Source of the DNA: a virus
Taxonomy: Duplodnaviria > Heunggongvirae > Uroviricota > Caudoviricetes
Reading direction: 5' to 3' (one strand)
Virus record (IMG/VR): IMGVR_UViG_3300042514_001345
Length of the DNA: 64,000 nucleotides
Positions 11,762 to 32,139 of the stretch are shown here, one piece after another. Each line of letters begins with the position of its first letter. Within the stretch, counting starts at the first letter, position 1. The notes beneath the pieces were generated by a model. The model made no database searches, was not told the origin of the DNA, and saw nothing but the letters and a program-made list of their open reading frames with translations. A program made the translations under genes and the position numbers.

Positions 11762-11790
11762 ATGACTAATATAATAAAAGAAAGTTGTAA

Positions 11791-11815
11791 AAAAAAATAA
11801 GGGCTACTAGAGCCC
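11791..11815 (-). terminator. terminator hairpin downstream of the lipoprotein gene
   Basis: Stem GGGCT / AGCCC with a 5-nt loop. On the minus strand it is followed by T9 (the A9 run on the plus strand). Confidence 0.5.
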
Positions 11816-11821
11816 TTAAAT

Positions 11822-12004
11822 TTATTTAACAGTTGTTACAGAATCTTTTCCAATTTCTGCTGTTGTTGAATCTGTTGCAGATACTGCTGTAGAATCTAGA
11901 TTAACCGACGTAGAGTCGGTTGTTTCAGTTGTGGTTGACCCTGAACCACATGCCGTTAATGCTAACATAGCACCAATAGCTAAAATCATTGTATATTTTT
12001 TCAT
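11822..12004 (-). CDS. small lipoprotein
   Basis: Signal peptide with lipobox (MLALTAC), then a Ser/Thr-rich mature part. Confidence 0.5.
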   Translation of the reverse strand: MKKYTMILAIGAMLALTACGSGSTTTETTDSTSVNLDSTAVSATDSTTAEIGKDSVTTVK

Positions 12005-12235
12005 AACAGTAAATATATGTAATTAATATCATAAAACAAAATAGAAATAAAAAACCCCAACTGGATGTCGGGGTTTAAGGTCGTTGCGTGGGTTCAACCC
12101 CACTATTAAAAAAACGAAAAGGTAATCGACAAAGAGTACCTCGAGAATATAAATATATAAAAAAACAGAAAAAGTCCACTTTTTTTTATTAATTTCAAGA
12201 AAAAAGTTTATTTTTGTGTTCTAAAAATAATAAAA

Positions 12236-13033: not shown

Positions 13034-15037
13034 TTTAAGAATTAGTTTATCTTCTTTGAATATTATTTTGTAATTTTTATTCTCTTTAATGGTGCCTTTT
13101 AATATTTCATCACTAAGGAAATCTTCACATAGTGATTGAATTATTCTTTTGATTGGTCTAGCACCATATTCTTGTTGTTTATTTCTGTTGAAAATTTCAT
13201 CAATAACAGTTGAATCAAATTTAATTGAATAACTTTTCTCAATTAATCTTTTTGTCAACTTTTCCATTTCTAATGTAATAATTGATTTAAGTGCTGTTTC
13301 ATCTAACGGATTAAATAAAACAATATCATCAATTCTATTTAGGAATTCTGGGTTAAATTGTTGTTTCAATGATTTTTGAATCATAGTTCTTTTAACCTCA
13401 TATGATTGTTGTTCGCTAGATGCTGTAGAGAATCCAATTCCTGCACCAAATTCGGAAACTCTTTTAGCCCCAATATTTGAGGTCATAATAATCAACGTGT
13501 TGGTAAAATTTATTTTTCTACCAAAAGAATCTGTAACGTGTCCTTCATCCAATATTTGAAGTAAAATGTTAAACACATCTTTGTGTGCTTTTTCAATTTC
13601 ATCAAATAGAATCACCGAGAATGGATTGTTTTTAACCTTTTCAGTTAATTGCCCACCCTCATCATAACCAACATATCCTGGAGGCGCACCAACTAATCTT
13701 GATACTGTGTGTTTTTCCATAAACTCACTCATATCAATTCTAATAACATTGTCCGCTGAACCAAATATTAATTCAGCCAAAGTTTTGGCTAGATATGTTT
13801 TACCCACACCAGTTGATCCCATAAAAATGAATGAACCAATAGGTTTTTGTGTTTCTTTAATCCCAACACGATTTCTTCTAATGGCTTTGGATATACTAGC
13901 TAGAGCTTCTGATTGACCAATAACTTTTTCACCTAATCTTTTTTCAAGGTTAATTAAATTTTCAGTTTCTTTGCGGTCTAATCTAGTAATTGGAACACCG
14001 GCCATTGATGTGATCATTTCATAAACATCATCAATACTAATCGGTATTTTATTATTTTTTTCGTTGTCTGCCCATATTGCTTTTTCGCTATTTAAACGAT
14101 TAATAACTTTTCTTTCTTCATCTCTTAGTTTTGCGGCTTGCTCATAATTTTGAGTACGAACAACTTCGAGTTTTTTTTCTTTAATAACTTCGGCATCCTT
14201 TTTTAATTTCTCAATAATTTCTGGAACCTCAATTACTACTCTTTTTTCCGAACCTAATTCATCTAGAACGTCAATTGCTTTGTCTGGGAATTGTCTATCT
14301 GTCATATAACGACCAGCAAGTTTGACCGCAATTTCAATCACACCTTCACCATAAGAAACTCTGTGATAGTCCTCATATGATTGCTTTAGATTTTTTAAAA
14401 TCTCTATTGTTTCCGTTTCTGTTGGTTCTTTTAATATGATTTTCTGGAATCTTCTAACCAAAGCACCATCCTTTTCAATGTGTTTTTTAAACTCATCAAA
14501 AGTTGTGGCACCAATACATTGAATTTCACCTCTAGCTAATGCTGGCTTTAAGATATTTGCAGCATCCATTGCTCCAGAAGCGTTACCAGCACCAACCATT
14601 GTATGTAATTCATCTATGAAAAGAATTACGTTGGGGTTTTCGGCTAATTCGTGTATAATAGCTTTAATCCTTTCTTCAAATTGACCTCGATATTTTGTAC
14701 CAGCAACTAATGAAGTTAAATCTAAGGAAACCAGTCGTTTATCCAATAAATTGGTTGGACAATTACCTTTAACAATCATTAACGCTAATTTCTCAACAAG
14801 TGCAGATTTTCCAACACCCGCATCACCAACAATGACCGCGTTGTTTTTTTTCTTTCTCGAAAGAATTTGTGCAATTCTTTTTACTTCCTTGTCTCTACCA
14901 ACGACCGGATCTATTTTATTATCCTCGGCTAGTTTGTTTAGATCCCTTGAAAAATTATCAAGAATTGGCGTTGTGGAGGAACTTTTTCTGTTCCTAGGGT
15001 TGGTTTTTGGACCGTCTTCAAAAAAATCTACTGACAT
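13007..15037 (-). CDS. ClpA/ClpC-like two-domain AAA+ unfoldase without an N-domain
   Basis: Two Walker A motifs (GDAGVGKSA, GSTGVGKTY), a UVR-like linker between D1 and D2, and an IGF tripeptide (GAGIGFSTASS) after sensor-1 of D2. Confidence 0.85.
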   Translation of the reverse strand: MSVDFFEDGPKTNPRNRKSSSTTPILDNFSRDLNKLAEDNKIDPVVGRDKEVKRIAQILSRKKKNNAVIVGDAGVGKSALVEKLALMIVKGNCPTNLLDKRLVSLDLTSLVAGTKYRGQFEERIKAIIHELAENPNVILFIDELHTMVGAGNASGAMDAANILKPALARGEIQCIGATTFDEFKKHIEKDGALVRRFQKIILKEPTETETIEILKNLKQSYEDYHRVSYGEGVIEIAVKLAGRYMTDRQFPDKAIDVLDELGSEKRVVIEVPEIIEKLKKDAEVIKEKKLEVVRTQNYEQAAKLRDEERKVINRLNSEKAIWADNEKNNKIPISIDDVYEMITSMAGVPITRLDRKETENLINLEKRLGEKVIGQSEALASISKAIRRNRVGIKETQKPIGSFIFMGSTGVGKTYLAKTLAELIFGSADNVIRIDMSEFMEKHTVSRLVGAPPGYVGYDEGGQLTEKVKNNPFSVILFDEIEKAHKDVFNILLQILDEGHVTDSFGRKINFTNTLIIMTSNIGAKRVSEFGAGIGFSTASSEQQSYEVKRTMIQKSLKQQFNPEFLNRIDDIVLFNPLDETALKSIITLEMEKLTKRLIEKSYSIKFDSTVIDEIFNRNKQQEYGARPIKRIIQSLCEDFLSDEILKGTIKENKNYKIIFKEDKLILKLVVGKVSE

Positions 15038-15194
15038 ATGCTAATTGTTCTTTTAACAAACATAACATATTTCATCGTAAAAAAAAAATAAACGTCAAAA
15101 TGTCTAAAAAAATGTCTAACCAAGAAGGGACTATTTTCCTAGATTAGGATTTTGTTTTATGGATTTTTATATTTAAATTATAGGAAAAAACATT

Positions 15195-15440
15195 ATGGCT
15201 ATAATTTCAGAAAGAATTGAAGGTAAAATCATCACTGTTGACATTAATTCAACAAATATAAAATCCGCAAGTTATGATACCGAAAGTCAGGTATTAATAG
15301 TTAATTTTAATAATGGAGGTATTTATGAATACCAAAGCGTTCCTTGGGAATTGTTTGCGAAATTTCGTATGTCAGATTCTCAGGGGAAGTATCTTAACCA
15401 GCATGTTAAGGGGAAATATTCACATACTAAAATTAAATGA
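15195..15440 (+). CDS. KTSC-domain protein
   Basis: The pattern V.S.....SYD.....L.V.F..GG.YEY..VP...F..F fits the KTSC domain. Confidence 0.6.
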   Translation: MAIISERIEGKIITVDINSTNIKSASYDTESQVLIVNFNNGGIYEYQSVPWELFAKFRMSDSQGKYLNQHVKGKYSHTKIK

Positions 15441-16234
15441 GAAAGAAAACATTAATTGAAGAACTGATTGAGGTTTCAGACCCAGAACTTGATGATAAGA
15501 TTGTAAAATCGTTTCATAAGAAAACTGAACTATCTTCAGATATTTTTGAGAAAAATGATTATGGTTATACCATGAATAAAGGTGTTAGAGAAAAACTAAT
15601 GTTAATTTCTGATGCCTTTTTAGATTTTGTGAAGATTAATTTTTTTGTTCATGACGTTGTTTTGACCGGCTCGTTGGCAAATTATAACTGGTCAGAGTTT
15701 TCTGACATTGATTTACACATTGTAGTTGATTTCGATGAATTGGGTAAAGATGCTGAAAAAACATCTGATTCATTAAAAGATATTGTAAAAGAATTTTTTG
15801 ACGCTAAAGAAAGGGTTTGGAACAACAGACACGATATTAAAATTAAAGGTTACGATGTTGAAATCTATGTTCAAGAAATTAATCAGGAGCACGTATCCTC
15901 TGGGGTATATTCTATATTAAATAATAAATGGATTGTCGAACCAGAATATGGGAAAGAATCTATTGATGAAGATAAAATACTAAAAAAAGCAGAATATTTT
16001 GTAAGTACCATCGATAAACTAGTCGAAAATGCAAATAATGGCGAAGACGTTGAAAGCCAAGTTGAGAAGTTAAGATTAAAATTGAAACGTTTTAGACAAA
16101 GTGGCTTAGATGATGGTGGTGAGTACTCATACGAGAACCTTACTTTCAAATTATTAAGAAGAAATGGGTACATTGAAAAACTATTGGGACTTAAAAAGAA
16201 ACTTATAGATAAGAAATTATCTGTGGAGTATTAA
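15437..16234 (+). CDS. Pol-beta-superfamily minimal nucleotidyltransferase
   Basis: LTGSLANYNWSEFSDIDLHIVVD matches the G[SG]x9-13Dh[DE]h NTase signature. Start overlaps the KTSC gene stop (ATGA). Confidence 0.55.
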   Translation: MRKKTLIEELIEVSDPELDDKIVKSFHKKTELSSDIFEKNDYGYTMNKGVREKLMLISDAFLDFVKINFFVHDVVLTGSLANYNWSEFSDIDLHIVVDFDELGKDAEKTSDSLKDIVKEFFDAKERVWNNRHDIKIKGYDVEIYVQEINQEHVSSGVYSILNNKWIVEPEYGKESIDEDKILKKAEYFVSTIDKLVENANNGEDVESQVEKLRLKLKRFRQSGLDDGGEYSYENLTFKLLRRNGYIEKLLGLKKKLIDKKLSVEY

Positions 16235-16304: not shown

Positions 16305-17630
16305 ATGGGAGATATAAAACCTCTAGGTAGCGAAAAGTTGCAAGGTTCTGACAAAATGAAAAGAATTCTTGAACTTACATATTACCACGAAAACAAGAAT
16401 AACCCCAAGTCAACCACTAAATCGGAACTTGTTAAGGAAAGCACTAATGGTGTTTACGGTATCATCAAAGAAAGAGATGGTTACTACGTAAAGAAAGGTC
16501 TAACTGAATCTACCCTTGATTATATTGGTGGTATGTTCATGAAGAATAAAAATAGATTTAATTCATATGCTGAAGCATTGAAAAGATTGGAATTATTAAG
16601 TTCACAAGAGATTCAAGAAGAAGCAACAAAATATGTATTAAAACAAAATACACAAAAAACTGAGGCACCTAAACCAGCTCCAACATTCCCAGAACCAGCA
16701 TCATCTGCACCGGCTCCAGCACCTGCTCCTGCACCATCTGCTGCGCCAGAAGATATGGGTGGGGCGCCAGAGGACATGGGTGGAATGCCAGAAGATATGG
16801 ACGCAGCGCCAGAAGATATGGGTGGTGAAGAACCAACAGATACACCAGAAGGTGGTGACGGCGGTCCTGAACACATGAAAGAAGTACAGAGATTAAGTGG
16901 TAAACTTGGACAAGCAATTAGAGAAATCGAAGATGAAATGGAGAGTGATGACGTAAAATACGTTATTAATATGATTTTGTCTGCTGTTGATATTGAAAAA
17001 TTATCTGAAGAAGATAAAGAAGCAATAATTGATAGATTTGAGCCAGAAGAAAGTTTTGATGATGCTTATACCCCAGAAGAACCAGAAAGTGGGGAAGATG
17101 CTGGTGCGGAACCAAGCGCTGAAGATGAACCAACTGATGAATTAGCTGAAACAATGAAAAAATTGGAAGAGTTAATTAACACTAAGATTGGTGGTAAAAA
17201 AACACCAGAAAAAGCTATAGAAAGTGAAATTGATGAGATGTTTTTCTTTGACGACGAAGAATCATCAAATGAAATGCCAGGTGAAGAATCTTCAAGATCT
17301 GGTTTCCACGCGTCAAAACAAGTTGAAAGACCATCTAGATTAGCTAAAAGCATGAAAACTGGTATTGGTTGGTTAGATGACAAAGCAAAACATTATAAAG
17401 AAGATGATTTCAATTCGGATGATTATGATGAAGAAGATTTTGATGATTATGAAAGTTTTTCAGCAAAGCATGGCGACACATCATTAGATATACGTGATAA
17501 AAAATATTTTAATCACTATAAACCAATGAAAATTAAAACATTGAGAAAATATGATCAAACAGATATTACACCAGAATTAGGTGACATAAATGAAGCGATC
17601 AACACGACATTAAGCAAATACTTTGAATAA
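16305..17630 (+). CDS. acidic low-complexity protein with four APEDMGG repeats
   Basis: Contains APAPAPAP followed by four APEDMGG-type repeats and D/E-rich segments. Confidence 0.5.
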   Translation: MGDIKPLGSEKLQGSDKMKRILELTYYHENKNNPKSTTKSELVKESTNGVYGIIKERDGYYVKKGLTESTLDYIGGMFMKNKNRFNSYAEALKRLELLSSQEIQEEATKYVLKQNTQKTEAPKPAPTFPEPASSAPAPAPAPAPSAAPEDMGGAPEDMGGMPEDMDAAPEDMGGEEPTDTPEGGDGGPEHMKEVQRLSGKLGQAIREIEDEMESDDVKYVINMILSAVDIEKLSEEDKEAIIDRFEPEESFDDAYTPEEPESGEDAGAEPSAEDEPTDELAETMKKLEELINTKIGGKKTPEKAIESEIDEMFFFDDEESSNEMPGEESSRSGFHASKQVERPSRLAKSMKTGIGWLDDKAKHYKEDDFNSDDYDEEDFDDYESFSAKHGDTSLDIRDKKYFNHYKPMKIKTLRKYDQTDITPELGDINEAINTTLSKYFE

Positions 17631-17633
17631 ACG

Positions 17634-18035
17634 ATGTATCTACTCTATATTAATGAACTAGGTCAAGATTACAAAGGGCAAAGACAATATGAATTTATCT
17701 TTGGCGAAGACCCAAGTGTGTTAGTTGAAGAGTGGTTCATAATTCCATCAGCAGGTAGAGCAATACCTCCAGAAGTAGAATCAATCGATTTGGTTGGTTT
17801 ATTAAAAAATTCAGATTTAAAACTAGATTTAGTTCAAAATTCTGATTACTTTGGAGTGATTGACGCGGTTGATGGAATTATTGCTTTAGGATGGGAATCA
17901 TTTGATTTTGAATCGGAAGAAAGACCTGTTAGGGTTTCTTTTCATTTTGGTGAACAAATTGATTCTGTAACTAATAAGCTAGCGTCAAAGGGTTTAAGGT
18001 TGATAAACGAAGAAATAAAATACAAATTAAAGTAA
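17634..18035 (+). CDS. hypothetical protein
   Basis: 133-aa ORF tightly packed in the plus-strand operon. Confidence 0.4.
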   Translation: MYLLYINELGQDYKGQRQYEFIFGEDPSVLVEEWFIIPSAGRAIPPEVESIDLVGLLKNSDLKLDLVQNSDYFGVIDAVDGIIALGWESFDFESEERPVRVSFHFGEQIDSVTNKLASKGLRLINEEIKYKLK

Positions 18036-18036
18036 A

Positions 18037-18732
18037 ATGAATAGAAAAGATTTAGTTGAAAAACTTATTAACGAAGGATTTAGTGAGAAAACATTAGTTA
18101 GTTTTAGTGACAAGAAACTTAAAATGTTATCAGAAAAATTAACAGTTAGCGCTGAAAAATTAAAAGACCCAAAAATTAAATCTGTTATTGATGCTAATCC
18201 AGCTATGGATATTGAAGTTAACGAAACTGCTCCATGGTCATATTATTTTGCAGCTGTTAAAAGATTACAAAAAGAATTAGGTAAAGAGCCAACTAAAAGC
18301 CAGATTGATGCTGAAATGAAAAAATTAGCAAAACCAGTGGCAAAAAAAGACGATAAAAAATCTGAAATGAATGAGTGGGTTAATTCTTTAGTTGAAAATG
18401 GATATCATCCTTTAACAACTAAAGGTGATATGATAGAAACAATAACTAAAAAAATTAACGAATCAGGTAATGCACCTGCAACAAAGCCAGCGCCAAGAGA
18501 AGCACCGGTAAAGGACCCTGGAACAAAAGAACCACCTAAAAGAAGAGATGATCCTAGAAGAACACCTTTTAGAAATCCAAATGAAAATCCTAAGGTGAAT
18601 CCAAATCCAAAAGCAGAAACTGGTAAAGTTGTTCCAATGCCTAACAAAGCAAAAAAGGGACACAATGGAATACCAGAATTTATGACTTATGACGCAATAA
18701 CTGGAAACAAATTTAAAATGGCTGCGGAGTAA
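18037..18732 (+). CDS. hypothetical protein with a basic Pro/Lys-rich C-terminus
   Basis: 231-aa ORF. Confidence 0.4.
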   Translation: MNRKDLVEKLINEGFSEKTLVSFSDKKLKMLSEKLTVSAEKLKDPKIKSVIDANPAMDIEVNETAPWSYYFAAVKRLQKELGKEPTKSQIDAEMKKLAKPVAKKDDKKSEMNEWVNSLVENGYHPLTTKGDMIETITKKINESGNAPATKPAPREAPVKDPGTKEPPKRRDDPRRTPFRNPNENPKVNPNPKAETGKVVPMPNKAKKGHNGIPEFMTYDAITGNKFKMAAE

Positions 18733-20099: not shown

Positions 20100-21878
20100 A
20101 TGAATAATAAATTAGAACAATTAAAAGAATATGCTAAAATTATTAAAGATGCTCCGTATGCTTTAAAAACATACTTAACAACTTATGATAATACGCAAAA
20201 GAAATATGTTCCTCTAGAATTATTTCCTGACCAAATTCAATTAATACAGGATTACGAAACATACAACGAAAACATTACAAGAAAGTATAGACAGGCGGGT
20301 GTTACAACAGTAACCGCTGCGTGGATTTCAAAAAAATTACAGACAGCAAAAGAAAGTGAACCTGAAAGAGTTCTTCTTATTGCGAACAAAAGAGACACCG
20401 CGGTAGAAATGGCTAATAAAGTTAGACACTTTATTGAGCAATGGCCGGATTGGATAAATGTGGGATTTTCACCCGATAAGAACTCAGAAAGTAGATTTAG
20501 ATTAAACAATGGTTGTGAGGTTAAGGCGGTAGCTACATCTGCGGATGCGTTACGTGGATATACCCCAACCATACTTGTATTTGATGAGGCAGCATATATT
20601 GAAGCAGGTGACGATTTTTGGGCGGCATCTATGGCGTCCCTATCAACAGGTGGTAAGATTATTCTTATCTCCACACCAAATGGTTATGACCCCATCTATT
20701 ATGGTGTTTATGACCAAGCATTACGTGGAATTAATGATTTCCATATAACGGATTTAAGATGGTTTAAAGACCCGCGTTACACTAGAGACCTATGTTGGGT
20801 AAAATGTCCTGATATATGCCATTACATGTTAAATAGGGAGCAATATAACGACGATGAAGTTGTTTTACATGACTTTGATATTGAAAAATATCAAGAACTC
20901 GTTGAACAAGGATATAAACCATTTTCATCTTGGTTTGAATCTATGTCTAAGAAATTTAAATATGATAGACGTAAGATTGCGCAGGAATTAGAATGTGACT
21001 TCTTAGGTTCAGGAGATGGTGTTATTTCGGGAGATGTTCAAGAGAATATTGCAAAAAATATGATTAAAGTACCTAAAGAAAAATACATGCAAGGTACTTT
21101 TTGGATATGGAATGAACCAGTACAAGGTCATAGATATATTATGGGCGTGGACGTTAGTAGAGGTGATAGTGATGACTATTCAGCTATTAGCATTATTGAC
21201 TTTGATGAAAGGGAACAAGTTGCTGAATATGTTGGTAAAATGCCACCAGATGATTTAGCGGCAGTTGCATATAAATGGGGTATATTATACGAAGCGTTTA
21301 TAGTTGTCGATATTACTGGTGGTATGGGCGTGGCTACATCAAGAAAATTACAGGAATTAAATTATAAGAGTTTATTCATTGACGGAGTTAACACAATGAA
21401 TCCATGGGAATATAATAAAAAAGCCATGGAAAAAATACCGGGAATAAACTTCAATAATAAAAGAACCCAGATTGTAGCCGCATTTGAGGAGCAATTAAGG
21501 AAAGGTTTTGCTATCAGGTCAAATAGATTATTAAACGAATTAAACACCTTTGTGTATATTAATGGTAGACCAGACCACATGAAGGGCGCTCACGATGATG
21601 CTATTATGAGCATGAGTATCGCATTATATGCTGGGGATATATGTTTCACACAACTTAAACGAAATGAACAGCAATCAAAAGCTATGGTTGATTCTTGGAT
21701 GATTGCGGAAAGAACATATGAAACTGGTAAGAATTTTTATTCATATGGAACATCCCTAGATGCAATCGGTTCAATGCAAATGGATGGTTCACAATATAAT
21801 AATACACAATCACAACCTGCAAAACAACAATACCAAGAATATGGCTGGTTATTTGGGGCTAATAAAAAGCATTTATAA
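20100..21878 (+). CDS. terminase large subunit (T4 gp17-like)
   Basis: 592 aa with a Walker B-like ILVFDEAAYI. It lies immediately upstream of the portal gene. Confidence 0.85.
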   Translation: MNNKLEQLKEYAKIIKDAPYALKTYLTTYDNTQKKYVPLELFPDQIQLIQDYETYNENITRKYRQAGVTTVTAAWISKKLQTAKESEPERVLLIANKRDTAVEMANKVRHFIEQWPDWINVGFSPDKNSESRFRLNNGCEVKAVATSADALRGYTPTILVFDEAAYIEAGDDFWAASMASLSTGGKIILISTPNGYDPIYYGVYDQALRGINDFHITDLRWFKDPRYTRDLCWVKCPDICHYMLNREQYNDDEVVLHDFDIEKYQELVEQGYKPFSSWFESMSKKFKYDRRKIAQELECDFLGSGDGVISGDVQENIAKNMIKVPKEKYMQGTFWIWNEPVQGHRYIMGVDVSRGDSDDYSAISIIDFDEREQVAEYVGKMPPDDLAAVAYKWGILYEAFIVVDITGGMGVATSRKLQELNYKSLFIDGVNTMNPWEYNKKAMEKIPGINFNNKRTQIVAAFEEQLRKGFAIRSNRLLNELNTFVYINGRPDHMKGAHDDAIMSMSIALYAGDICFTQLKRNEQQSKAMVDSWMIAERTYETGKNFYSYGTSLDAIGSMQMDGSQYNNTQSQPAKQQYQEYGWLFGANKKHL

Positions 21879-21926: not shown

Positions 21927-23738
21927 ATGGCAGACCAAAATTTAACAATATTTCAAAGATTAACCAAAATCTTTGGCTATCAGGGACAAACACCACAACC
22001 GCCATCGTTTAATTTTTCTAAGGAAGAACTCCTTACGACTAGTGACCCGATGGAATATGAGCGTGAAAGATTGAAACTACAACAAAGCCAATATCTTTTT
22101 GATAAATGGGCTAAGGTTGATAATTCAATGTACAATCAATCGGTTTATTATGAGCCAAATAGAATAGCTGCATATTATGATTTTGAATCAATGGAGTTTA
22201 CACCAGAGGTATCAGCAGCATTAGACATTTATGCTGAGGAATCAACTACAATGTCTGAAAAAGGATTTATTTTAAACGTTTATTCAGAATCAAAAAGAGT
22301 TAAGAACATTTTAATTGATTTGTTTGAAAACAAATTAGATATCAACACAAATTTACAAATGTGGGCTAGAGGTATGTGTAAGTACGGTGATGATTTTGTT
22401 TATTTAAAAGTTGATCCAGAAAAAGGAATTATCGGTTGTCAACAATTGCCAAATATTGAAATAGAAAGAGTTGAAGGTTCTTTAGGTTTAACACCATCAC
22501 AAAGAGATAGCAAATTACCGACTAAAGAATTAATGTTTAGATGGAAAAATCGTGACATGGAATTCCAAGCATGGGAAATTGCTCACTTTAGAATTTTAGG
22601 TGATGATAGAAAACTACCTTATGGGACATCTATGTTGGATAAAATTAGAAGAATCTGGAAACAATTATTACTTGCGGAAGATGCTATGTTAATTTATAGA
22701 ACATCTAGAGCCCCTGAAAGAAGGGTATTCAAGGTGTTCGTTGGTAATATGGACGACAAAGATATTGAACCATATGTACAACGTGTTGCTAATAAATTCA
22801 AGAGAGACCAATCAGTAGATGCTAGAAACGGTCAAGTGGATATGAGATATAATCAAATGGCTGTTGACCAAGATTATTTCATACCAGTACGTGACCCAGC
22901 AGCACCAAACCCAATTGATACACTACCTGGAGCACAGAATTTAGGTGAGATAGCGGATATTGAATATATTCAAAAGAAATTATTAGCGGCTCTTAGAATA
23001 CCTAAAGCGTTTTTAGGTTTTGAAGAAGTTGTTGGTGATGGTAAGAATCTTGCATTAATGGATATTCGTTTTGCAAGAACTATTAATAGAATTCAAAAAT
23101 CATTAATTCAAGAATTAAACAAGGTTGCGTTAATTCATCTATACATGTTAGGTTTAGAAGATGAATTAAATAACTTTACATTAGGTTTATCAAATCCATC
23201 TGCACAATCAGATTTATTACGTATTGAACAATGGAAAGAAAAAGTCACACTTTACAAAGATGCGACATCTGATCAATCTCAAGTTGGTATTTTACCAGTT
23301 TCACATACATGGGCTAAGAAAAATATTCTTGGATTTAGTGACAATGAAGTTCTTCTTGATTTACAACAACAACGTCTTGAAAGAGCGATGGGCTTTGAAT
23401 TAACAAACACACAGACCGTAATTAAACGTTCTGGAATATTTGATGAGGTTGATGCTAAGTACGGTATCTCAGAAGATGAAAGGCAAGCAGCAGAGGCGGC
23501 TACCGCCGCTGAAGGTGGTGGTGAAGCGCCTGAATTGGGCGGAGCAATGGGTGCACCACCTGCACCATCAGGACCGCCATCAGGTGGTGGTGAGGAACCT
23601 TTAAGTGAAGGTAAAAAAGCTAAACTTATCTCATCTTTAGGCGGTGGAGATAAATTAGAAGATTTATTTAATATGGAAAAGGCACAAAGGAATATTTATG
23701 AAATGGAGAATAAATTAAAAGATATTTTAAACGATTAA
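21927..23738 (+). CDS. portal protein (gp20-like)
   Basis: 603 aa. Position in the order terminase, portal, protease, scaffold, capsid protein supports the call. Confidence 0.7.
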   Translation: MADQNLTIFQRLTKIFGYQGQTPQPPSFNFSKEELLTTSDPMEYERERLKLQQSQYLFDKWAKVDNSMYNQSVYYEPNRIAAYYDFESMEFTPEVSAALDIYAEESTTMSEKGFILNVYSESKRVKNILIDLFENKLDINTNLQMWARGMCKYGDDFVYLKVDPEKGIIGCQQLPNIEIERVEGSLGLTPSQRDSKLPTKELMFRWKNRDMEFQAWEIAHFRILGDDRKLPYGTSMLDKIRRIWKQLLLAEDAMLIYRTSRAPERRVFKVFVGNMDDKDIEPYVQRVANKFKRDQSVDARNGQVDMRYNQMAVDQDYFIPVRDPAAPNPIDTLPGAQNLGEIADIEYIQKKLLAALRIPKAFLGFEEVVGDGKNLALMDIRFARTINRIQKSLIQELNKVALIHLYMLGLEDELNNFTLGLSNPSAQSDLLRIEQWKEKVTLYKDATSDQSQVGILPVSHTWAKKNILGFSDNEVLLDLQQQRLERAMGFELTNTQTVIKRSGIFDEVDAKYGISEDERQAAEAATAAEGGGEAPELGGAMGAPPAPSGPPSGGGEEPLSEGKKAKLISSLGGGDKLEDLFNMEKAQRNIYEMENKLKDILND

Positions 23739-23740
23739 AA

Positions 23741-24487
23741 ATGAACAACTTTGGAAAAATAAAGTCGAAGTTATTGAAAAAATTAACTGAGGCGTACACA
23801 GATAAAACTTTTAAACAAAATACAAAAAACTTGTTTAAGGTGATTAAGAAGAATAGAGATTTCAAAGAAATGTATCTATTTTATGAAGAAATAGAGAACA
23901 AGTATTTTGAGGATAAAGAAACCGCTAAACTTTATGTTGAACAACTTGGTCAATTATTAAAGGAAAAGGCAACGAAAATTAATAGCTTTTGTCAAGTTAT
24001 CAACATGTCGGTTCATGACACGCAAATAGATGAAAACAAACTTTACGATTCAATTGATCAGTTATTAGAAGATGATAACTTAAATAATATTGATAAGAAA
24101 GTTATGGCTAAAAAGAAGTTGGTAGAACATTTAACAACAAAAAAAGAAAATATTGAGAAAACAACCGAAACTTACACAGTAAATGAAAATTTATTACATG
24201 CTGTTTTGGCAAACAATTTTAACGTTCTTTATAATAACACATTAAATGAAGAGCAAAAAGAAACCTTAAAAACAATTATATCACTTTCTGATGAAGATTT
24301 AAAAACAAAGGTTAACGAATTAAAAGAAAGTTTAACCACTAAAGTAGATACCCTCTTAAGTGAAGCAAAATCTAACGACGCAACATTTGCAACAAAATTA
24401 ACGGATGTTAAAAAAGAAATGGACGAAATGGTCCCGACGAAATTTAACTACTATCGTTTAAAACAATTAGAAAATGGTCTGGATTAA
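23741..24487 (+). CDS. K/E-rich coiled-coil protein (prohead core gp67/68-like?)
   Basis: Position between portal and prohead protease, matching T4. Confidence 0.35.
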   Translation: MNNFGKIKSKLLKKLTEAYTDKTFKQNTKNLFKVIKKNRDFKEMYLFYEEIENKYFEDKETAKLYVEQLGQLLKEKATKINSFCQVINMSVHDTQIDENKLYDSIDQLLEDDNLNNIDKKVMAKKKLVEHLTTKKENIEKTTETYTVNENLLHAVLANNFNVLYNNTLNEEQKETLKTIISLSDEDLKTKVNELKESLTTKVDTLLSEAKSNDATFATKLTDVKKEMDEMVPTKFNYYRLKQLENGLD

Positions 24488-24504
24488 TCTAGACCATTTT
24501 TTTT
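24475..24504. terminator. bidirectional terminator hairpin
   Basis: Stem TGGTCTGGA / TCTAGACCA with loop TTAA and a T8 run, lying between convergent genes. Confidence 0.55.
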
Positions 24505-24675
24505 CTGTTGAAGGTATATCGCTTTCAATACTTCCTTCCTTCTACTTACTGAAGGTTTAACAAATTCTTGTCTTTCTCTTAATTTTTGTATTTGCTTGGT
24601 CTTTTGAACCTTACTTTTATACGTTCTAAGAGCAGATTCGAGATTTCTTTCCTTACTTAAATCAATTATAATCAT
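24484..24675 (-). CDS. rpsU: ribosomal protein bS21
   Basis: MIIIDLSKERNLESALRTYKSKVQKTKQIQKLRERQEFVKPSVSRRKE follows the S21 pattern (M.vI.V...E....ALRrFKr.......l.E.RrR..yeKPs..Rkr). Confidence 0.7.
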   Translation of the reverse strand: MIIIDLSKERNLESALRTYKSKVQKTKQIQKLRERQEFVKPSVSRRKEVLKAIYLQQKKNGLD

Positions 24676-25247: not shown

Positions 25248-25931
25248 ATGAAGATATTAGGTCCAAACGAAATAGGTAAGGGAATTTTAATAGAATACGA
25301 CGCTGGACACATTTCTCCTAGTGAAAACAGAGCAGTGTTAAAAGAAATGGAGAATAAAGATACCAATCAGGACTTTATTCTCTATGCCGTTTTACAAAAA
25401 TACGATACACCAAACAAGAACGGTAGAATATACCCACAGGCACTCTTAAAAAGAGAAAACGAAAAATATCAACAAGCTATTAATAGCGGTTCGGCATTAA
25501 ACGAACTAAATCACCCATCATCATCACTTATTGACTTAGACAGGGTATCCCACAGTATTTTAGAAACTTGGTGGGATAGTAAAATCCTTATGGGTAAAAT
25601 TAAACTATTCACATCTCCGGGTTGGAAAAAGATGGGTATTGTGTCAACTAAAGGTGACCAAGCAGCTATGCTTTTATTAAATGGAGCAACTCTAGGTATA
25701 TCATCTAGAGGGGTTGGTTCATTAAAGAATGAAAGAGGTCAAAACATTGTTCAAGATGACTTTGAATTAGTATGTTTCGACTTAGTTTCATCACCATCAA
25801 CACCAGGCGCATACATCTTCCAAGATTTATCTGATAAAGACAAATATCAAGAATCTGTTGAAGAAAAGCCAATTGTTGATGATAGAATGAAAAAACTAAT
25901 GGGAAACCTTAATAGTTTTTTAAGTAAATAA
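25248..25931 (+). CDS. prohead core protease (T4 gp21-like)
   Basis: NKNGRIYPQALL, ALNELNHPSSS, ILETWWDSKILMGKIKL and GISSRGVGSL align with T4 gp21 NRNKRLYPKRIL, ALGELNHPPRA, IEDMWWKGNDVYGRARV and GVSSRGLGSL. Confidence 0.85.
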   Translation: MKILGPNEIGKGILIEYDAGHISPSENRAVLKEMENKDTNQDFILYAVLQKYDTPNKNGRIYPQALLKRENEKYQQAINSGSALNELNHPSSSLIDLDRVSHSILETWWDSKILMGKIKLFTSPGWKKMGIVSTKGDQAAMLLLNGATLGISSRGVGSLKNERGQNIVQDDFELVCFDLVSSPSTPGAYIFQDLSDKDKYQESVEEKPIVDDRMKKLMGNLNSFLSK

Positions 25932-26012: not shown

Positions 26013-27179
26013 ATGACTGAAAAATCAATTTTAGAACAAGCGTTACTTCAAGTGCAAACACTTGAGGAAGCAGTAAAGCAAAATGCAAAAGGTATCCTTG
26101 CGTCAACAATGAAACAAGAACTAAACGATTTGCTTAAAGAATCTATGGAAGATGAGGAGATCAAGTTAACTGCTGAACAAGCAGATGATGAAGACGCTCC
26201 TGAAGATGAAGAAGATGTTACCGACCCAGAAGCAGATGCTGAAGGTGAGGGAGATGACGAATTACCAGCAATAAACGATGAACCATCTAAAGACATTGAT
26301 GGTGAAGATTTATCTGATCCTGATGATGAAGAAGGATTTGGTGATGAATTACCAGCAATCGATGACGAGATGCCAACTGATGACAATGACATGTTAGACA
26401 TGACTGGTGCTTCTGATGAAGAAGTATTAAAAGTGTTTAAAGCAATGTCTGACGAAGATGGTATTATTGTTAAAAAAGATGGTGACAACATTAGTTTAGA
26501 AGATGGTGAAGATGAATATATCATCAAATTAAACGAAGAAGATGAATCTGAAGAAGAATTTTCTGAAGGTTATAACGAAGAAGAAGACGCGCCAATGGCG
26601 GGTGACGAAGAATTAGGTGAAGAAGAAGAAACTGTTTATGAAATCGAATTAGACGGTGAAAACGATGACGAAGAAGTTATGTCAACATCAAAAGAAGTTG
26701 AAGCGACTGAATCTGCTCGTAACATCGGACACGGTTATCATAGTGGAATTAAAAGTAAAAAATTACATTTCGCTGGTAACAAAAGAGAAGCAGTAAACGA
26801 AGAAGTTACAACGTTAAAAAAGCAAAATGCTGAATATAAAAAGGCGTTATTACTATTTAAAGATAAACTTAACGAGGTTGCTGTATTCAATGCAAATTTA
26901 GCTTACGCTACAAGATTGTTTACTGAGCACTCAACAACAAAAACTGAGAAGTTGGATATTTTGAAAAGATTTGACACAATTTCTACTATAAATGAATCAA
27001 AAAATCTTTACAATTCAATCAAAACTGAACTTGGATCTAAAAAATCTGTAACTGAGTCAGTTGTTGAAAAAATTGCATCAACACCTTCAACATCTTCAAC
27101 TGAAGTACTTTCTGAATCAAAAGTTTACGAAGCACCTCAATTTGCAAGAATGAAAGATTTGATGAAAAAATTAAAATAA
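26013..27179 (+). CDS. acidic scaffold protein (gp22-like)
   Basis: D/E-rich coiled-coil protein lying between the protease and capsid genes. Confidence 0.5.
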   Translation: MTEKSILEQALLQVQTLEEAVKQNAKGILASTMKQELNDLLKESMEDEEIKLTAEQADDEDAPEDEEDVTDPEADAEGEGDDELPAINDEPSKDIDGEDLSDPDDEEGFGDELPAIDDEMPTDDNDMLDMTGASDEEVLKVFKAMSDEDGIIVKKDGDNISLEDGEDEYIIKLNEEDESEEEFSEGYNEEEDAPMAGDEELGEEEETVYEIELDGENDDEEVMSTSKEVEATESARNIGHGYHSGIKSKKLHFAGNKREAVNEEVTTLKKQNAEYKKALLLFKDKLNEVAVFNANLAYATRLFTEHSTTKTEKLDILKRFDTISTINESKNLYNSIKTELGSKKSVTESVVEKIASTPSTSSTEVLSESKVYEAPQFARMKDLMKKLK

Positions 27180-27211: not shown

Positions 27212-28939
27212 ATGGGAGCATTATTAGAATCAGGTATGGTTGGTAACATTGGATTAAAACATTTACGTGTTATCAAAGAAGATACTATTAGAAAATGGGA
27301 TGACTTAGGTTTCTTAGAAAACCTTGACGGTCACCAAAAAGATAACATCGCGCAATTGTATGAAAACCAAGCGTCTTATTTAATCAACGAAGCAGCAGTT
27401 TCTGATGCTTCAGGTTCTTTCGAGACAGTGGTATTCCCTATTATTCGTCGTGTGTTCTCTAAATTATTAGCGAATGACATCGTTTCAGTTCAAGCTATGA
27501 ACTTACCAATTGGTAAATTATTCTTCTTTATCCCTAAGATACAAGAAAGAAACGCAGCAAACGGACATTATTCTCCATACGGTATCCCAGGTGGTGCAGG
27601 TGGAGCTAGCGCAAGCACAGGTTACACAGGTACAAACCTTTACGATCGTTTCTACGAAGCGAATGATGAAGCTACTAGCGGTTTATTTGACTATTCAAAA
27701 GGTCAATTCTCTGGAGTAACTTTAGCAGGTGCATCTTATGTAACTTTCTCTGCTGGACAAGTAACTGAAGTAGCTAACTCAGCAATGACTGGTACTTCTA
27801 AGAGTGATGTAATCATCAAATTTAGTGGTTTCACTAAAACAGCTCAAGGTAAATTAATCGGACCAAACGGTTCTGTAATGGACACTGAAGATTTCTTAGC
27901 ATCAGCTACAGTATCTTTCTCTGGTGAATCTAAAAATTTCAACGTTGTAACTCAACAATACGGTAAAGGTATCGTTGCTTACGGTCAAAAAAGTACAACA
28001 TCAGGATATCCTAGTGGTGGATACCAAGACATTTGCGACGAAGAAGGTGTAATCTATGTAAAAGTAGACGTACAAACTTATTCAGCAACTGCTGGTTTCA
28101 GCGCTGTAACTTTAGCTTCTGACGCGTTAGCATCTGCTTTCGTATTAAACTTCAGAGTTTATGATTCATTAGAATTCGAAGAAGAAATCGGTGAGGTTTC
28201 TTTCGATCTTTCTTCTGTAACAGTTTCTGTAACTGAAAGAAAATTAAGAGCAACTTGGTCTCCAGAATTAGCTCAAGACGTTAGTGCGTTCCACAACATC
28301 GATGCTGAAGCTGAATTAACTGCTTTATTATCTGAGCAAATCGCTGCTGAGGTTGACCGTGAAATCTTACGTGATTTACGTAAAGGTGCTGCTTGGTCTC
28401 TTAAGTGGGATTACAATGAGTGGAAGTACGGTGGTTCATCAGGAGCAACTTTACAAGGTTACACTCAAAAGGATTGGAACCAAACGTTAATCACAAAGAT
28501 TAACCAATTATCGGCTCAAATCCATAAAACAACTTTACGTGGTGGTGCAAACTGGATTGTAGTTTCTTCAGAAGTTTCTGCTGTATTCGATGATTTAGAA
28601 TATTTCCACGTATCAAACGCTCATCCAGAGCAAGACCAATACAACATGGGTATTGAAAAAGTAGGTACTTTAGCTGGCCGTTACCAAGTGTATCGTGACC
28701 CTTACTTCCCTGCTGACAAAATCTTGATTGGTCACAAAGGTAAGTCATTATTGGATGCTGGTTATATCTACGCACCATATGTGCCTTTACAATTAACTCC
28801 AACAATGTATAATCCTTTCAACATGACACCTATCAAAGGTATCATGACAAGATACGCAAAGAAAATGGTTAACAACCGTTACTATGGTGTAATCTCTGTA
28901 AAAGGTATCCAAACATTTGACATGGGAACTTTAAGATAG
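27212..28939 (+). CDS. major capsid protein (T4 gp23-like, HK97 fold)
   Basis: RRVFSKLLANDIVSVQAMNLPIGKLFFF aligns with gp23 RRAIPNLIAFDICGVQPMNSPTGQVFAL. ELAQDVSAFHNIDAEAELTALLSEQIAAEVDREI aligns with ELAQDLRAVHGMDADAELSGILATEIMLEINREV. GRYQVYRDPYF...GHKGKSLLDAGYIYAPYVPL aligns with GKYRVYIDQY...GYKGPNEMDAGIYYAPYVAL. Confidence 0.92.
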   Translation: MGALLESGMVGNIGLKHLRVIKEDTIRKWDDLGFLENLDGHQKDNIAQLYENQASYLINEAAVSDASGSFETVVFPIIRRVFSKLLANDIVSVQAMNLPIGKLFFFIPKIQERNAANGHYSPYGIPGGAGGASASTGYTGTNLYDRFYEANDEATSGLFDYSKGQFSGVTLAGASYVTFSAGQVTEVANSAMTGTSKSDVIIKFSGFTKTAQGKLIGPNGSVMDTEDFLASATVSFSGESKNFNVVTQQYGKGIVAYGQKSTTSGYPSGGYQDICDEEGVIYVKVDVQTYSATAGFSAVTLASDALASAFVLNFRVYDSLEFEEEIGEVSFDLSSVTVSVTERKLRATWSPELAQDVSAFHNIDAEAELTALLSEQIAAEVDREILRDLRKGAAWSLKWDYNEWKYGGSSGATLQGYTQKDWNQTLITKINQLSAQIHKTTLRGGANWIVVSSEVSAVFDDLEYFHVSNAHPEQDQYNMGIEKVGTLAGRYQVYRDPYFPADKILIGHKGKSLLDAGYIYAPYVPLQLTPTMYNPFNMTPIKGIMTRYAKKMVNNRYYGVISVKGIQTFDMGTLR

Positions 28940-29333: not shown

Positions 29334-30203
29334 TTACCAAGTTCTACAAGCCCAATATCTTGGTTTCCAACGCGGTCCTGGATTTGCACAATTGTGTCTT
29401 GCTCTGAATGATTTACGTCTTGCTGGGTTATTCTTCTTAATAACCATTCTTTTTCCTTTAGCGGATTTACCGCCAAAACCAAAGTTTACCTTAACGACTT
29501 TACCTTTATCGTTCTTAACGTACACTTTAAATTTTTTAATATCGCCCTGCATTATCTTACCTAGCTGAACTTTACGTCCTTGATATTCGGCTTCATTTAA
29601 CATATTATCAATAACATAGTTGGTCATTTGTACCGAACCATCTTCATCTTCATATATTAAAACTGGAGTTTCTTCATTATATTCAAATAATCTTTTAAAT
29701 TGTTCTTCCGATATTTGAATAATTGTTCTTTTTTTCACACTTTCAGATAATCTATCCATTTCTTTATATCTAAGAGGATTGGACATTCTTTCTGGTTGAC
29801 TAAACAATCTTTTTTTTCTTGTAAAAGCAAAACTTCTACTTCTTTCATCGACACTACTTTGTTCATCAAACTTGACCATAGTTGGTTTATTTCCTTTACC
29901 GACTTTTGGGTCCTCTTTTTCGGCTCTTCTTTTTTGTGATGTCATTGCTTTTTTTTCTTTTTTATCATAAGATGAAGCAACTTTTGGGGTTTCTTTAGAC
30001 ACTTTTTTAGAAGGTCTACATTTTGGATAGGATTTCCCATCAGCGTCTTTTCGACCACAAGGCGGGTGTTTACCGTCTACCTTTTTACTAACGTCTACCC
30101 ACTTTTCTTTAAACCATCTTCTAAGGTCTTCTTGCAAGACCTCTCCTGATTTTAAAGATTCTTCAATATATTCTTTATCTTCTTTAGATACTATAAATTT
30201 CAT
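29334..30203 (-). CDS. highly basic Cys-containing protein (possible nucleic-acid-binding or internal virion protein)
   Basis: 289 aa, Lys/Arg-rich, with a C-terminal CANPGPRWKPRYWACRTW. Confidence 0.4.
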   Translation of the reverse strand: MKFIVSKEDKEYIEESLKSGEVLQEDLRRWFKEKWVDVSKKVDGKHPPCGRKDADGKSYPKCRPSKKVSKETPKVASSYDKKEKKAMTSQKRRAEKEDPKVGKGNKPTMVKFDEQSSVDERSRSFAFTRKKRLFSQPERMSNPLRYKEMDRLSESVKKRTIIQISEEQFKRLFEYNEETPVLIYEDEDGSVQMTNYVIDNMLNEAEYQGRKVQLGKIMQGDIKKFKVYVKNDKGKVVKVNFGFGGKSAKGKRMVIKKNNPARRKSFRARHNCANPGPRWKPRYWACRTW

Positions 30204-30484: not shown

Positions 30485-31246
30485 TTATAATTTGGTATCT
30501 TTTATAAATTTTTTATGTGAATTTTTATATGATTTTAATGATTCGTCATTTATATCTTTAGTATATTGCCAATTCCAATATAAATCGTCATTTATTTTAA
30601 AACCATAAAATTCATGGATTTTCTTTTGTAAATCATTCACATTTACACCGTTAAAATTCTGTCCAGTACATATAAATCCAGTTTCAATATCTTTAACTAA
30701 ATTGGATTCACCTAACGCCGTGTGTCTGTTTTCTATCCAAGTTAAACGTTCAATTAGATTTTGATAAAACATATTTGTTTGTCCCCATCTAACGGAACTT
30801 AGAAATACAACCGCATCTGACTCAAATAGTTCTTTACTTATTTTCCAAAGTTCATCTTTGGGGTTGTTTATACTAGCCCAACATCTATGGTGACCGGTTG
30901 GATTTTTATCTTTATCCTTAAGTTTTGATTTTAATAAACCACAACTATTACCGTCTTTTCTTGATACATTACCCTCACAAGGAACTATGTTTAATTCTGA
31001 AACGTCTATCAATGTTGATTTATCACCCAATTCATCATTAAGATACATCGCAATCATTTTAGATTTTGGTATATCAATATCGTTTTTATCCCAATTATGT
31101 CTATTAGAACAACTTAATAATAAAACTTTTTTCTTCTTTTTAAGAACGTCCAATGTTTTCTCTATAGATTTCCAAGCATCAGATTGTACCATCTCCTCAG
31201 AAATCATCATTTGTCTAATCCTATGTATGTTCTCTTGTAAGTTCAT
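30485..31246 (-). CDS. flavodoxin-like NAD(P)H-dependent FMN reductase family protein
   Basis: KKVLLLSCSNR and AVVFLSSVRWGQTNMFYQNLIERL resemble the FMN_red fold. Confidence 0.4.
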   Translation of the reverse strand: MNLQENIHRIRQMMISEEMVQSDAWKSIEKTLDVLKKKKKVLLLSCSNRHNWDKNDIDIPKSKMIAMYLNDELGDKSTLIDVSELNIVPCEGNVSRKDGNSCGLLKSKLKDKDKNPTGHHRCWASINNPKDELWKISKELFESDAVVFLSSVRWGQTNMFYQNLIERLTWIENRHTALGESNLVKDIETGFICTGQNFNGVNVNDLQKKIHEFYGFKINDDLYWNWQYTKDINDESLKSYKNSHKKFIKDTKL

Positions 31247-31705
31247 CTATTTACATTTTTTCCAACCACCACCTTTTGCTTTATAGTTTTTGGCAGCCCA
31301 ACCATTAGCGTATGCTGAAGGATAAACGTCAAATTTTCTTTTAGCCGCCGCCTTAGACGCCGACCATTTTGCTGGGTCGGTGGGGCAGTTTTTACTTTCG
31401 TCTATTTCACCATTTTCAGATAAATCTTTTTCTGATTCGGTTAGGTTTTTTTGTTCCATATAACTTTCTATGAAATTTGCAACTTCTTCAATATCATCTT
31501 TCGATGTTGTGATGTGATCACCGGCCCATGCGTGTTCTCCCGTAACTAATTTTGGGAAATCGGGGTGGTGTTTAAATGATAAGATTATTTCAATATCGTT
31601 CTTTATTTGAGTTAAATTACTCAATACCATATATGTACCAGTTTCTGAAATATGCTCTTCTTGAGCTTCTTTGATACATTTTTTAATAAGTTCGTTGATG
31701 TTCAT
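31247..31705 (-). CDS. hypothetical protein, paralog A, with a shared 22-aa N-terminal leader
   Basis: MNINELIKKCIKEAQEEHISETG matches the start of the 31726..32139 ORF. Confidence 0.45.
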   Translation of the reverse strand: MNINELIKKCIKEAQEEHISETGTYMVLSNLTQIKNDIEIILSFKHHPDFPKLVTGEHAWAGDHITTSKDDIEEVANFIESYMEQKNLTESEKDLSENGEIDESKNCPTDPAKWSASKAAAKRKFDVYPSAYANGWAAKNYKAKGGGWKKCK

Positions 31706-31708
31706 TTT

Positions 31709-31716
31709 TATAAATA
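31709..31716 (-). promoter_or_regulatory. TATTTATA upstream motif (minus strand)
   Basis: 3 nt upstream of the start of paralog A (31705). Confidence 0.35.
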
Positions 31717-31725
31717 TTTAGTTAA

Positions 31726-32139
31726 TTAGAAGGATACATCGTAATCATCCTCAGAAAAAGATATATTAATTTGTCTACGAACTGTGTTAATATTCCATCC
31801 GGTTATAATTTCAGATATTCCTTCATCCATATAGTAATTACTTATTTGTTCCATGTATTTTTCTAACCGAGCATAATCTTTCCAGCTAATATTACCCCTT
31901 GCGTCTTCCCAAAAATCAATGATAAGTTCACCATCTTCGTAGTATACTTCGTTAACACCATCACCCACAAAACTAAATAATTCTTTTATAGTATCTTCAG
32001 ACGCTATGTGAACTTCTTTTACATCTTGATTAACCCCACCACTAAGAACAAAAAGGGGTAACGCTGATTCACCACTTTCAGTGATGCGTTCTTCTTGTGT
32101 TTCAATAATACATTTTCTAATAAGTTCTTTAAGGTTCAT
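31726..32139 (-). CDS. hypothetical protein, paralog B, with a shared 22-aa N-terminal leader
   Basis: Begins MNLKELIRKCIIETQEERITESG. Confidence 0.45.
   Translation of the reverse strand: MNLKELIRKCIIETQEERITESGESALPLFVLSGGVNQDVKEVHIASEDTIKELFSFVGDGVNEVYYEDGELIIDFWEDARGNISWKDYARLEKYMEQISNYYMDEGISEIITGWNINTVRRQINISFSEDDYDVSF

Follow-up and report, generated by a model that had tools for sequence, protein, structure and literature searches.

The 64,000-nucleotide stretch analysed here (the window; virus record IMGVR_UViG_3300042514_001345, Caudoviricetes) contains two adjacent minus-strand genes whose products start with the same short leader and then part completely. Judged from its sequence, the phage is an uncultured, distant marine relative of the T4-like myoviruses. 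The p152 gene (31247..31705, minus strand), a member of a family termed F152, encodes 152 residues arranged as the leader, a helical core, an acidic linker and a basic C-terminal mini-domain. The p137 gene (31726..32139, minus strand) encodes 137 residues, composed of a 23-residue leader and an acidic α/β cargo. The two open reading frames (ORFs) begin with MNINELIKKCIKEAQEEHISETG and MNLKELIRKCIIETQEERITESG, respectively. The leaders occupy codons 1–23 and were checked by translation; they read MNINELIKKCIKE/AQEEHISE/TG in p152 (31637..31705, minus strand) and MNLKELIRKCIIE/TQEERITE/SG in p137 (32071..32139, minus strand), where slashes mark candidate cuts, here and below. From Ala14, p152 continues as AQEEHISETG..., and from Thr22 as TGTYMVLSNLTQIK. 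The preliminary description of this DNA, which reported two neighbouring ORFs with a common leader followed by divergence, was accurate in its coordinates; both are encoded on the minus strand, and no similarity extends beyond Gly23.

In a BLASTP comparison, p152 and p137 align over residues 1–23 only, with 15 of 23 residues identical (including Cys10), 19 of 23 positive and an E-value of 2e-8; no homology is detected past residue 23. The corresponding DNA is identical at 53 of 69 bases (77%), starting at the first base of the ATG and ending with the codon for Gly23, while the upstream non-coding DNA is not included. Synonymous codon differences occur at 3 of the 15 identical residues. Among all N-termini in the window, the best other pairing reaches a BLOSUM score of 32, compared with 114–118 for the p152/p137 leaders. 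Moreover, the pairing of the two genes is kept in the related loci L001–L003, L105 and L115, and residues 1–13 of the p137 leader match those of the orthologue P0128 at 10 of 13 positions, whereas the whole proteins are 61% identical. The DNA of the pair has diverged to 77% identity and differs synonymously at conserved residues, while the hydrophobic periodicity is kept, which indicates constraint at the protein level. On these comparisons, the shared leader is real, modular and under protein-level constraint.

The F152 family has more than 1650 homologues that align with p152 over its full length, and the homologues of p137 are conserved in length; p152 and p137 are, on this comparative evidence, real genes. 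The AlphaFold model of p152 has a mean predicted local distance difference test score (pLDDT) of 78. The helical core (residues 24–100, GTYMVLSNL...GEHAWAGDHITTSKDDIEEVANFI; 31406..31636, minus strand) is marked by invariant alignment columns and predicted helices at residues 21–43, 50–55 and 60–98, with pLDDT of 78–94 over residues 21–98. The leader is modelled as a helix at residues 3–16 with pLDDT of about 50, so it is predicted not to pack on the core. The acidic linker is a site of optional inserted mini-modules across the family. It is followed by the C-terminal basic module (residues 105–152, KNCPTD...PSAYANGWAAKNYK...; 31250..31393, minus strand), whose counterpart in Pfam is the N-terminal half of the model DUF5872 (PF19197; positions 1–39; 19.4 bits and E 0.0017, under the gathering cut-off of 27.5 bits) and which also matches phrog_27331 (E 2.6e-7). 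This module is predicted with pLDDT of 85–91 and occurs alone in many viral contigs; its isoelectric point (pI) is 9.8, compared with 5.8 for p152 overall. A fold search of PDB and BFVD with the p152 model returned matches only to the DUF5872-like mini-domain in uncharacterised viral proteins, the core matched none of the solved or viral predicted structures, and a profile search of PDB sequences with p152 was negative.

In contrast to the large F152 family, p137 has few homologues. A full HMMER profile search of 1.84 billion representatives, followed by alignment, retrieved relatives with 37–87% identity; no p137 relative turned up when viral contigs were scanned. The AlphaFold model of p137 is poor (pLDDT 46), with a leader helix predicted at residues 3–16. 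The p137 cargo is found behind three different N-termini: the window type (MNLKELIRKCIIE), which recurs in P0128 as MNLKQLIKKCIKE/A; MEKKELENIIRRLLKE/S in P0129 and P0130; and MKTFNEFVNE/G in P0132, whose cargo matches p137 with an E-value of 7e-12 across 103 residues (BLASTP). A homologue search with P0132 returned the protein itself alone.

Similarly, the leaders on the F152 core are of at least two types, A (MNINELIKKHLNKVVKEQ..., MNINELIKKHLNKVVKE...) and B (MKKIIITESQLKKII...). In the locus L013, the genomic slot of p137 is occupied by an unrelated 133-residue gene, and its product carries 24 of 25 residues of the type-B F152 leader of the same phage. The two copies form a direct repeat of 75 nucleotides (9567–9641 and 9971–10045, identical at 74 of 75), which is bounded exactly by the ATG and codon 25. 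By its sequence, this repeat is a fresh and independent case of leader capture in the p137 slot. Across about 80 viral loci, 23 same-locus pairs share an N-terminus (at least 7 of the first 12 residues) and have unrelated remainders, compared with a total of 2 pairs in control windows (residues 31–42). The preliminary description had stated that its proposal would fail if the leader were a conserved structural element of a single folded family. The leader proves instead to be a module, because F152 has two leader types, p137 has three N-termini, the capture recurs in L013 and such pairs outnumber controls by 23 to 2; the leader pLDDT of about 50 is in line with this. Scans for the window-type leader on other cargo were negative: degenerate DNA patterns written for it had 0 hits among viral contigs, and in metagenome contigs they recovered only the same gene pair and out-of-frame chance matches. 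Whether or not head targeting holds, leaders have been copied repeatedly onto new genes in one genomic slot, which demonstrates a modular assembly of phage genes.

Each leader contains [LI]xE three times, at matching positions in the two proteins (Glu5, Glu13 and Glu21), in agreement with the I-x-E sites noted in the preliminary description. At least three such sites occur in 4.7% and 8.8% of trials with shuffled leaders; the count is therefore only mildly unusual and weak evidence by itself. Candidate sites of the form [LIV]xE plus a small residue are IKE13/A and ISE21/T in p152, and IIE13/T and ITE21/S in p137. All three leader types of the p137 family, together with p152, contain [LIV]xE[ASTG] within the first 20 residues, compared with a background of 8.3% of 539 cargo clusters; this enrichment is supportive, not decisive, because the motif was defined after the T4 sites had been seen. 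In addition, the end positions of [LI]xE across clusters peak at residue 10, with 18 clusters compared with 5.7 ± 2.1 at positions 25–60.

The presumed processing enzyme is also encoded. As the preliminary description had stated, the window contains a gp21 homologue, a gp21-type prohead protease (25248..25931, plus strand; Peptidase_S77, E 1.1e-19). It is 29% identical to T4 gp21 in BLASTP (E 9e-19), with the catalytic ELNHP and SSRG motifs aligned and intact. Its N-terminus contains ILIE16, and that of T4 gp21 contains LLIE9. T4 gp21 cuts after Glu in L/I-x-E (PMC9026906), and T4 gp23 is cut at LTE65/A (PMC9958956). Sites read from the T4 genome comprise gp23 LTE/A, gp24 MAKINELLRE/S, gp22 MLKEQLIAE/A, gp21 LLIE/T and FIAE/A. 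In the window capsid protein, residues 57–60 read LINE and are followed by Ala61 (27380..27391, plus strand). In about 19 related capsid proteins, LINEA does not vary, unlike the residues after it, and the segment aligned to T4 gp23 residue 95 follows LINE/A at a distance of 13 residues. We infer that LINE/A is the maturation cleavage site of the capsid protein. The [LI]xE plus small residue sites of the leaders resemble this clade-invariant propeptide site.

Taken together, the mechanism with the best support is that the leader acts as in T4, as a propeptide that targets proteins to the prohead and is cut off by the gp21 homologue; we assign it a probability of roughly 0.45. T4 internal proteins have N-terminal targeting sequences of 10–19 residues, which are enough to bring a foreign protein into the head (PMC9026906). 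By analogy, p137 and p152 would be late-type genes, and their leader would be a detachable amphipathic helix (residues 3–16) followed by an acidic stretch. The leader would dock both proteins onto the scaffolding core during prohead assembly, the gp21-type protease would cut after Glu at IKE13/A or IIE13/T and possibly at ISE21/T or ITE21/S, and the mature cargo would stay inside the head after leader removal. The gene pair probably arose when the 5′ end of the conserved F152 gene was copied onto, or recombined with, the neighbouring gene, the copy then being kept by selection. Directly seen in the sequence are the common leader, its modularity, the motif positions, the protease gene and an upstream motif in common with head genes; core binding, cleavage, packaging and a post-injection role of p137 and p152 are what we infer, and an anti-defence function of the cargo is pure speculation. 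If the leaders work as in T4, the principle would reach very distant and abundant marine T4-like phages that use different sequences. It would also provide the first functional handle on F152, with its more than 1650 members, and on the DUF5872 modules.

The capsid-targeting proposal of the preliminary description thus stands in part: modularity, the [LI]xE plus small residue sites matching LINE/A and the protease gene favour it, whereas sequence identity to T4, the charge of the cargo and the generic nature of the helix do not. Several observations weigh against this reading. Both window leaders share 1 of 11 ungapped identities with the T4 targeting sequence, and the distance to the candidate sites is 13–23 residues, compared with 10 (10–19) in T4. 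The cargo of p137 is not basic, as the protein has a pI of 4.2. In contrast to the internal proteins of T4, which turn over fast, F152 belongs to the conserved core genes, and the residue-21 site (HISE) is lost in some F152 subfamilies, where HITDEG or HISQDG is found. Both genes lie in the hyperplastic region beside metabolic genes, outside the portal-to-capsid block. The T4-like N-terminus of P0132 belongs to a singleton on a 1-kilobase (kb) contig with no assigned phage type, and its MKTFNEFVNE partly aligns to residues 30–33 of the p137 cargo. The leader pattern is that of a generic amphipathic helix, which is also present on the terminase, a protein that is not packaged. A profile–profile comparison (hhalign) of p152 and p137 gives a second, weak match past the leader (HITTSKDDIEEVANF / HIA-SEDTIKELFSF; 19 columns, E 0.0047, probability 7.5%), which leaves room for old paralogy. 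Co-variation of leaders within a genome, as expected from one receptor per phage, stands out only in adjacent genes (the window and L013), and this argument was dropped. An iterated leader model drifted onto the N-termini of terminase large subunits and is therefore not used as evidence of function.

The shared leader can also be explained without head targeting or proteolysis. The two genes might be old tandem paralogues, or derive from a partial 5′ duplication, with the leader as a conserved helix for oligomerisation or for binding a partner such as a chaperone or a tail or baseplate assembly factor. This explanation, the main rival, which we consider possible but rather doubtful, fits the adjacency of the genes, since the two families remain neighbours even in diverged loci, whichever comes first (L115, L117), and the fixed position of the F152 core gene directly after the p456/p513/p626 block, possibly tail or baseplate genes. 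The generic helix pattern, found on the terminase too, and a count of three [LI]xE in 23 residues only marginally above shuffles also count in its favour. The hhalign match at E 0.0047 is a further point for it, but the probability of that match is just 7.5%, and BLASTP finds nothing past residue 23. Furthermore, the p137 cargo occurs with quite different N-termini, one of them of 10 residues, and such free replacement is unexpected for a helix that is integral to a fold or oligomerises; the leader is also not packed on the core in the AlphaFold model. A conserved partner-binding helix leaves unexplained both the consistent [LIV]xE plus small residue at the end of each leader type and the clustering of leader-sharing genes beside the protease in related phages.

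An explanation mainly at the level of DNA or translation appears improbable. Here the 5′ segment would serve as a recombination anchor for gene swapping, or as an A-rich start for initiation, and the peptide would have no specific function. The L013 repeat, identical at 74 of 75 nucleotides and starting exactly at the ATG, indicates that recombination or gene conversion took place recently. Gene content in the slot between p456 and F152 differs among relatives, variability is high from p456 to the capsid gene, and starts rich in Lys, Asn and Ile are frequent in this AT-rich genome (32% guanine plus cytosine, GC). The targeting sequence of T-even phages has itself been suggested as an evolutionary mechanism for bringing varied proteins into the capsid (PMC9026906), and an exchange of this kind is compatible with a targeting function, not opposed to it. 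The window pair, however, is only 77% identical in DNA, with synonymous differences at conserved residues, its upstream non-coding DNA is without similarity, and leader residues 1–13 are more conserved than the rest of p137 among orthologues. Direct repeats in a recombination-proficient T4-like phage would, in addition, tend to delete an unselected intervening gene. A chance likeness of two low-complexity Lys/Glu/Ile-rich N-termini is suggested by the AT-rich genome, where many ORFs start with MK or MN and a charged helix, but is effectively refuted by 15 of 23 identical residues including Cys10 (E 2e-8), by the next-best N-terminus in the window scoring 32 compared with 114–118, and by the retention of the pairing in L001–L003, L105 and L115. 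The T4-style propeptide remains the reading that we prefer.

Leader-sharing genes are also found in a second group of marine T4-like phages, in which small genes of this kind sit between the portal, protease and scaffold genes. In L028, three of them lie directly upstream of the protease gene (14347–15941). In L077, five consecutive genes between the prohead protease and scaffold genes (16305–18670) start with MIKLK..LL.E and have mutually unrelated remainders. This position in L028 and L077 equals the gp67/gp68 neighbourhood of T4. Five consecutive genes starting with MIKLK..LL.E are likewise present in L051 (16340–18935), and this 10-residue start resembles the T4 gp24 propeptide MAKINELLRE. 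In several viral contigs of a different type, small ORFs start with MKTFKQFIKEA, MKSFKQFILED, MKTFFQFITER or MKSFIQYLKEDLRKWF..., near the T4 sequence MKTYQEFIAEA (L032 at 10704, L030 at 11492, L053 at 13170 and 9770, L074 at 459, L018 at 4091); one of these is fused directly to a DUF5872 module.

Searches of Pfam and PHROGs assign a function neither to p137 and p152 nor to the proteins with leaders from L013 and L028, and a 279-residue protein of L005 gives only weak matches to tape-measure families in the same databases. A tblastn search with p152 and the leader-bearing proteins of L028 and L077 retrieves nothing but uncultured huge phages, Microcystis phage Mel-JY01 and cyanophage C-terminal modules, none of them functionally annotated, and a literature search on the leader strings and DUF5872 found nothing relevant. 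It is conceivable, though we hold it only tentatively, that, in uncultured marine T4-like phages, interchangeable head-loading leaders of at least four classes are attached to dozens of mutually unrelated small proteins, the widespread DUF5872 modules among them, and direct these to packaging and prohead-protease trimming, with p137 and p152 as one instance. The four classes, equally tentative, would be MKTF.EF..E (T4-like), MIKLK.LL.E, type A (..ELIKK.I.E) and type B (KIIxITESQLKKII). If this wider reading is true, the ocean would hold a very large unexplored repertoire of phage-injected proteins, recognisable by a leader plus [LI]xE. If the leaders found here work as in T4, a sequence rule (leader, [LI]xE and small residue, near head genes) would predict injected proteins in metagenomes.

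A third protein of the window, p289 (29334..30203, minus strand), was remarked on in the preliminary description as possibly of the same class as p137 and p152. The remark is plausible, because p289 is very basic (pI 9.9) and its start, MKFIVSKEDKEYIEE/S, is a leader-like helix ending in IEE/S. Residues 7–96 of p289 contain the C-terminal half of DUF5872 (positions 40–114, E 8.6e-13, 49.3 bits, above the cut-off). The DUF5872 model is thus split in the window, with positions 1–39 at the end of p152 (31250–31393) and positions 40–114 at the start of p289 (29916–30185). An internal segment of p289, RTIIQISEEQFKRLFE (residues ~160–180), is matched by the type-B leader model, and the sequence suggests that p289 is a fusion of two once-separate leader-bearing ORFs. 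The genes for p289 and F152 directly adjoin each other in L004, L005 and L115, whereas flavodoxin-like and pterin-4a-carbinolamine dehydratase genes lie between them in the window, L010 and L012, apparently as an insertion. The first of these in the window (30485–31246) encodes a protein resembling flavodoxin or flavin mononucleotide (FMN) reductase, with weak Pfam hits only, and has a 38-residue N-terminal extension (MNLQENIHRIRQMMISEEM...) before the predicted first strand; this extension may be another leader-like helix, on an enzyme. The third-best leader match in the window is a 231-residue protein encoded upstream of the terminase block (18037–18732), which starts MNRKDLVEKLINE/G and shares LINE with the capsid propeptide site.

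The head genes of the window comprise the T4-type large terminase (20100–21878), the T4-type portal (21927–23738), p248 (23741..24487, plus strand) at the gp67/gp68 position between portal and protease, the protease, a gene at the scaffold position (26013–27179) and the gp23-type capsid protein (27212–28939; Pfam Gp23, E 5e-74). The N-terminal helix of p248 ends in KLTE17/A, and its orthologues have N-termini ending in LLE/S or ITE/S, which are picked up by the leader model. The p137 and p152 genes lie 2.3–3.2 kb from the capsid gene. Gene order in about 20 syntenic contigs is p626, p65, p513, p456, a variable slot, F152, the hyperplastic region, capsid, scaffold, protease, p142, p248 and portal. 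The variable slot is occupied by p137 in the window lineage, whereas in L117 and L112 the p137 homologue comes after F152. The longest contig with these genes has 286,845 bases. A megablast comparison of the region with 50,697 phage records gave no match, and the closest cultured capsid proteins, from Flavobacterium phage immuto and Microcystis phage Mel-JY01, are about 40% identical and come from phages without these genes.

The octamer TATTTATA is located 3 nucleotides upstream of the p152 ATG (31709..31716, minus strand), and a form with one mismatch, TATTTAAA, abuts the ATG of p137. It lies 1–34 nucleotides (mostly 3–5) upstream of 12 start codons, including those of the terminase, portal, protease and scaffold genes; the other ATGs preceded by it are at 16305, 20100, 21927, 24675, 25248, 26013, 44499, 47504, 52965, 59806 and 61848. 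In the window, 12 of the 19 exact sites occupy this upstream position, while the total count is not above shuffles. We regard the octamer as a candidate motif of late promoters or start sites; in reverse complement, it reads as the T4 late promoter TATAAATA. Among the other genes, ribosomal protein S21 is encoded within the head-morphogenesis block between p248 and p142 (24484–24675, minus strand), a position kept in L001, L115, L117 and Mel-JY01. A 676-residue double AAA+ protein of the ClpB/ClpA type (13007–15037, minus strand; AAA_2 E 6e-69, ClpB_D2-small E 1e-19) is neighboured by a gene with a nucleotidyltransferase domain (15437–16234). In L037, the capsid gene appears as two ORFs (11714–12499 and 12751–13500) with a gap of about 250 nucleotides; the gap may reflect an interruption by an intron- or intein-like element, or else an artefact of assembly or a frameshift.

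Among known systems, DUF5872 (PF19197), which is found in marine phages and giant viruses, resembles the present case in that its modules recur near the head genes of many marine T4-like contigs, and one is encoded in the cyanophage S-BM3 gene cluster T4-GC119. It is, however, an uncharacterised family that is silent on the leader, and the match of p152 lies under the curated cut-off. Proteomic evidence for the cyanophage protein of T4-GC119 was not found in supplements of Sullivan et al. 2010. In the giant phages phiKZ, 201phi2-1 and SPN3US, many unrelated inner-body and ejection proteins inside the head are trimmed after Glu by a gp21-related protease at a three-residue motif, often with redundant sites (PMC9026906). 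The window leaders likewise have several sites each. The giant-phage motif is S/A-x-E and not L/I-x-E, their propeptides are long and mutually dissimilar, and they are established by mass spectrometry, whereas the window leaders are predicted from sequence.

The propeptides of T4 gp24, gp22, gp67 and gp21 are closer in form: Met and a few polar residues are followed by two hydrophobic residues, any residue, Glu and a small residue. INEL[IL] in the window leader corresponds to the gp24 propeptide at a one-residue shift, and p248 (KLTE/A) and the protease (ILIE) of the window itself fit the same pattern. These T4 propeptides, however, belong to essential shell and core proteins encoded inside the portal-to-capsid block, whereas p137 and p152 are small, accessory-looking and encoded outside it on the opposite strand.

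With the T4 internal proteins, the case shares a short N-terminal peptide common to otherwise unrelated small proteins of one phage, a leader that putatively ends in [L/I]-x-E plus a small residue in the presence of a gp21-type protease gene, and cargo genes in variable regions, where the leader is apparently reused when new genes are recruited. The T4 starts read from the genome are MKTFKEFTST for IPI and MKTYQEFIAE/A for IPII and IPIII, and the p137-cargo homologue P0132 starts with MKTFNEFVNE/G. The window leaders differ in having three candidate sites each and not one, and one of their carriers, F152, is a conserved core gene with more than 1650 homologues. The internal proteins of T4 are basic (PMC9026906), whereas p137 is acidic and p152 has a pI of 5.8, so that neither is a small basic protein. 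The significance of the comparison lies in what the T4 system does. The T4 targeting sequence serves as a biotechnology tool and also brings anti-restriction proteins such as IPI to the host. To our knowledge, it is the only well-studied signal that loads arbitrary proteins into the head of a tailed phage.

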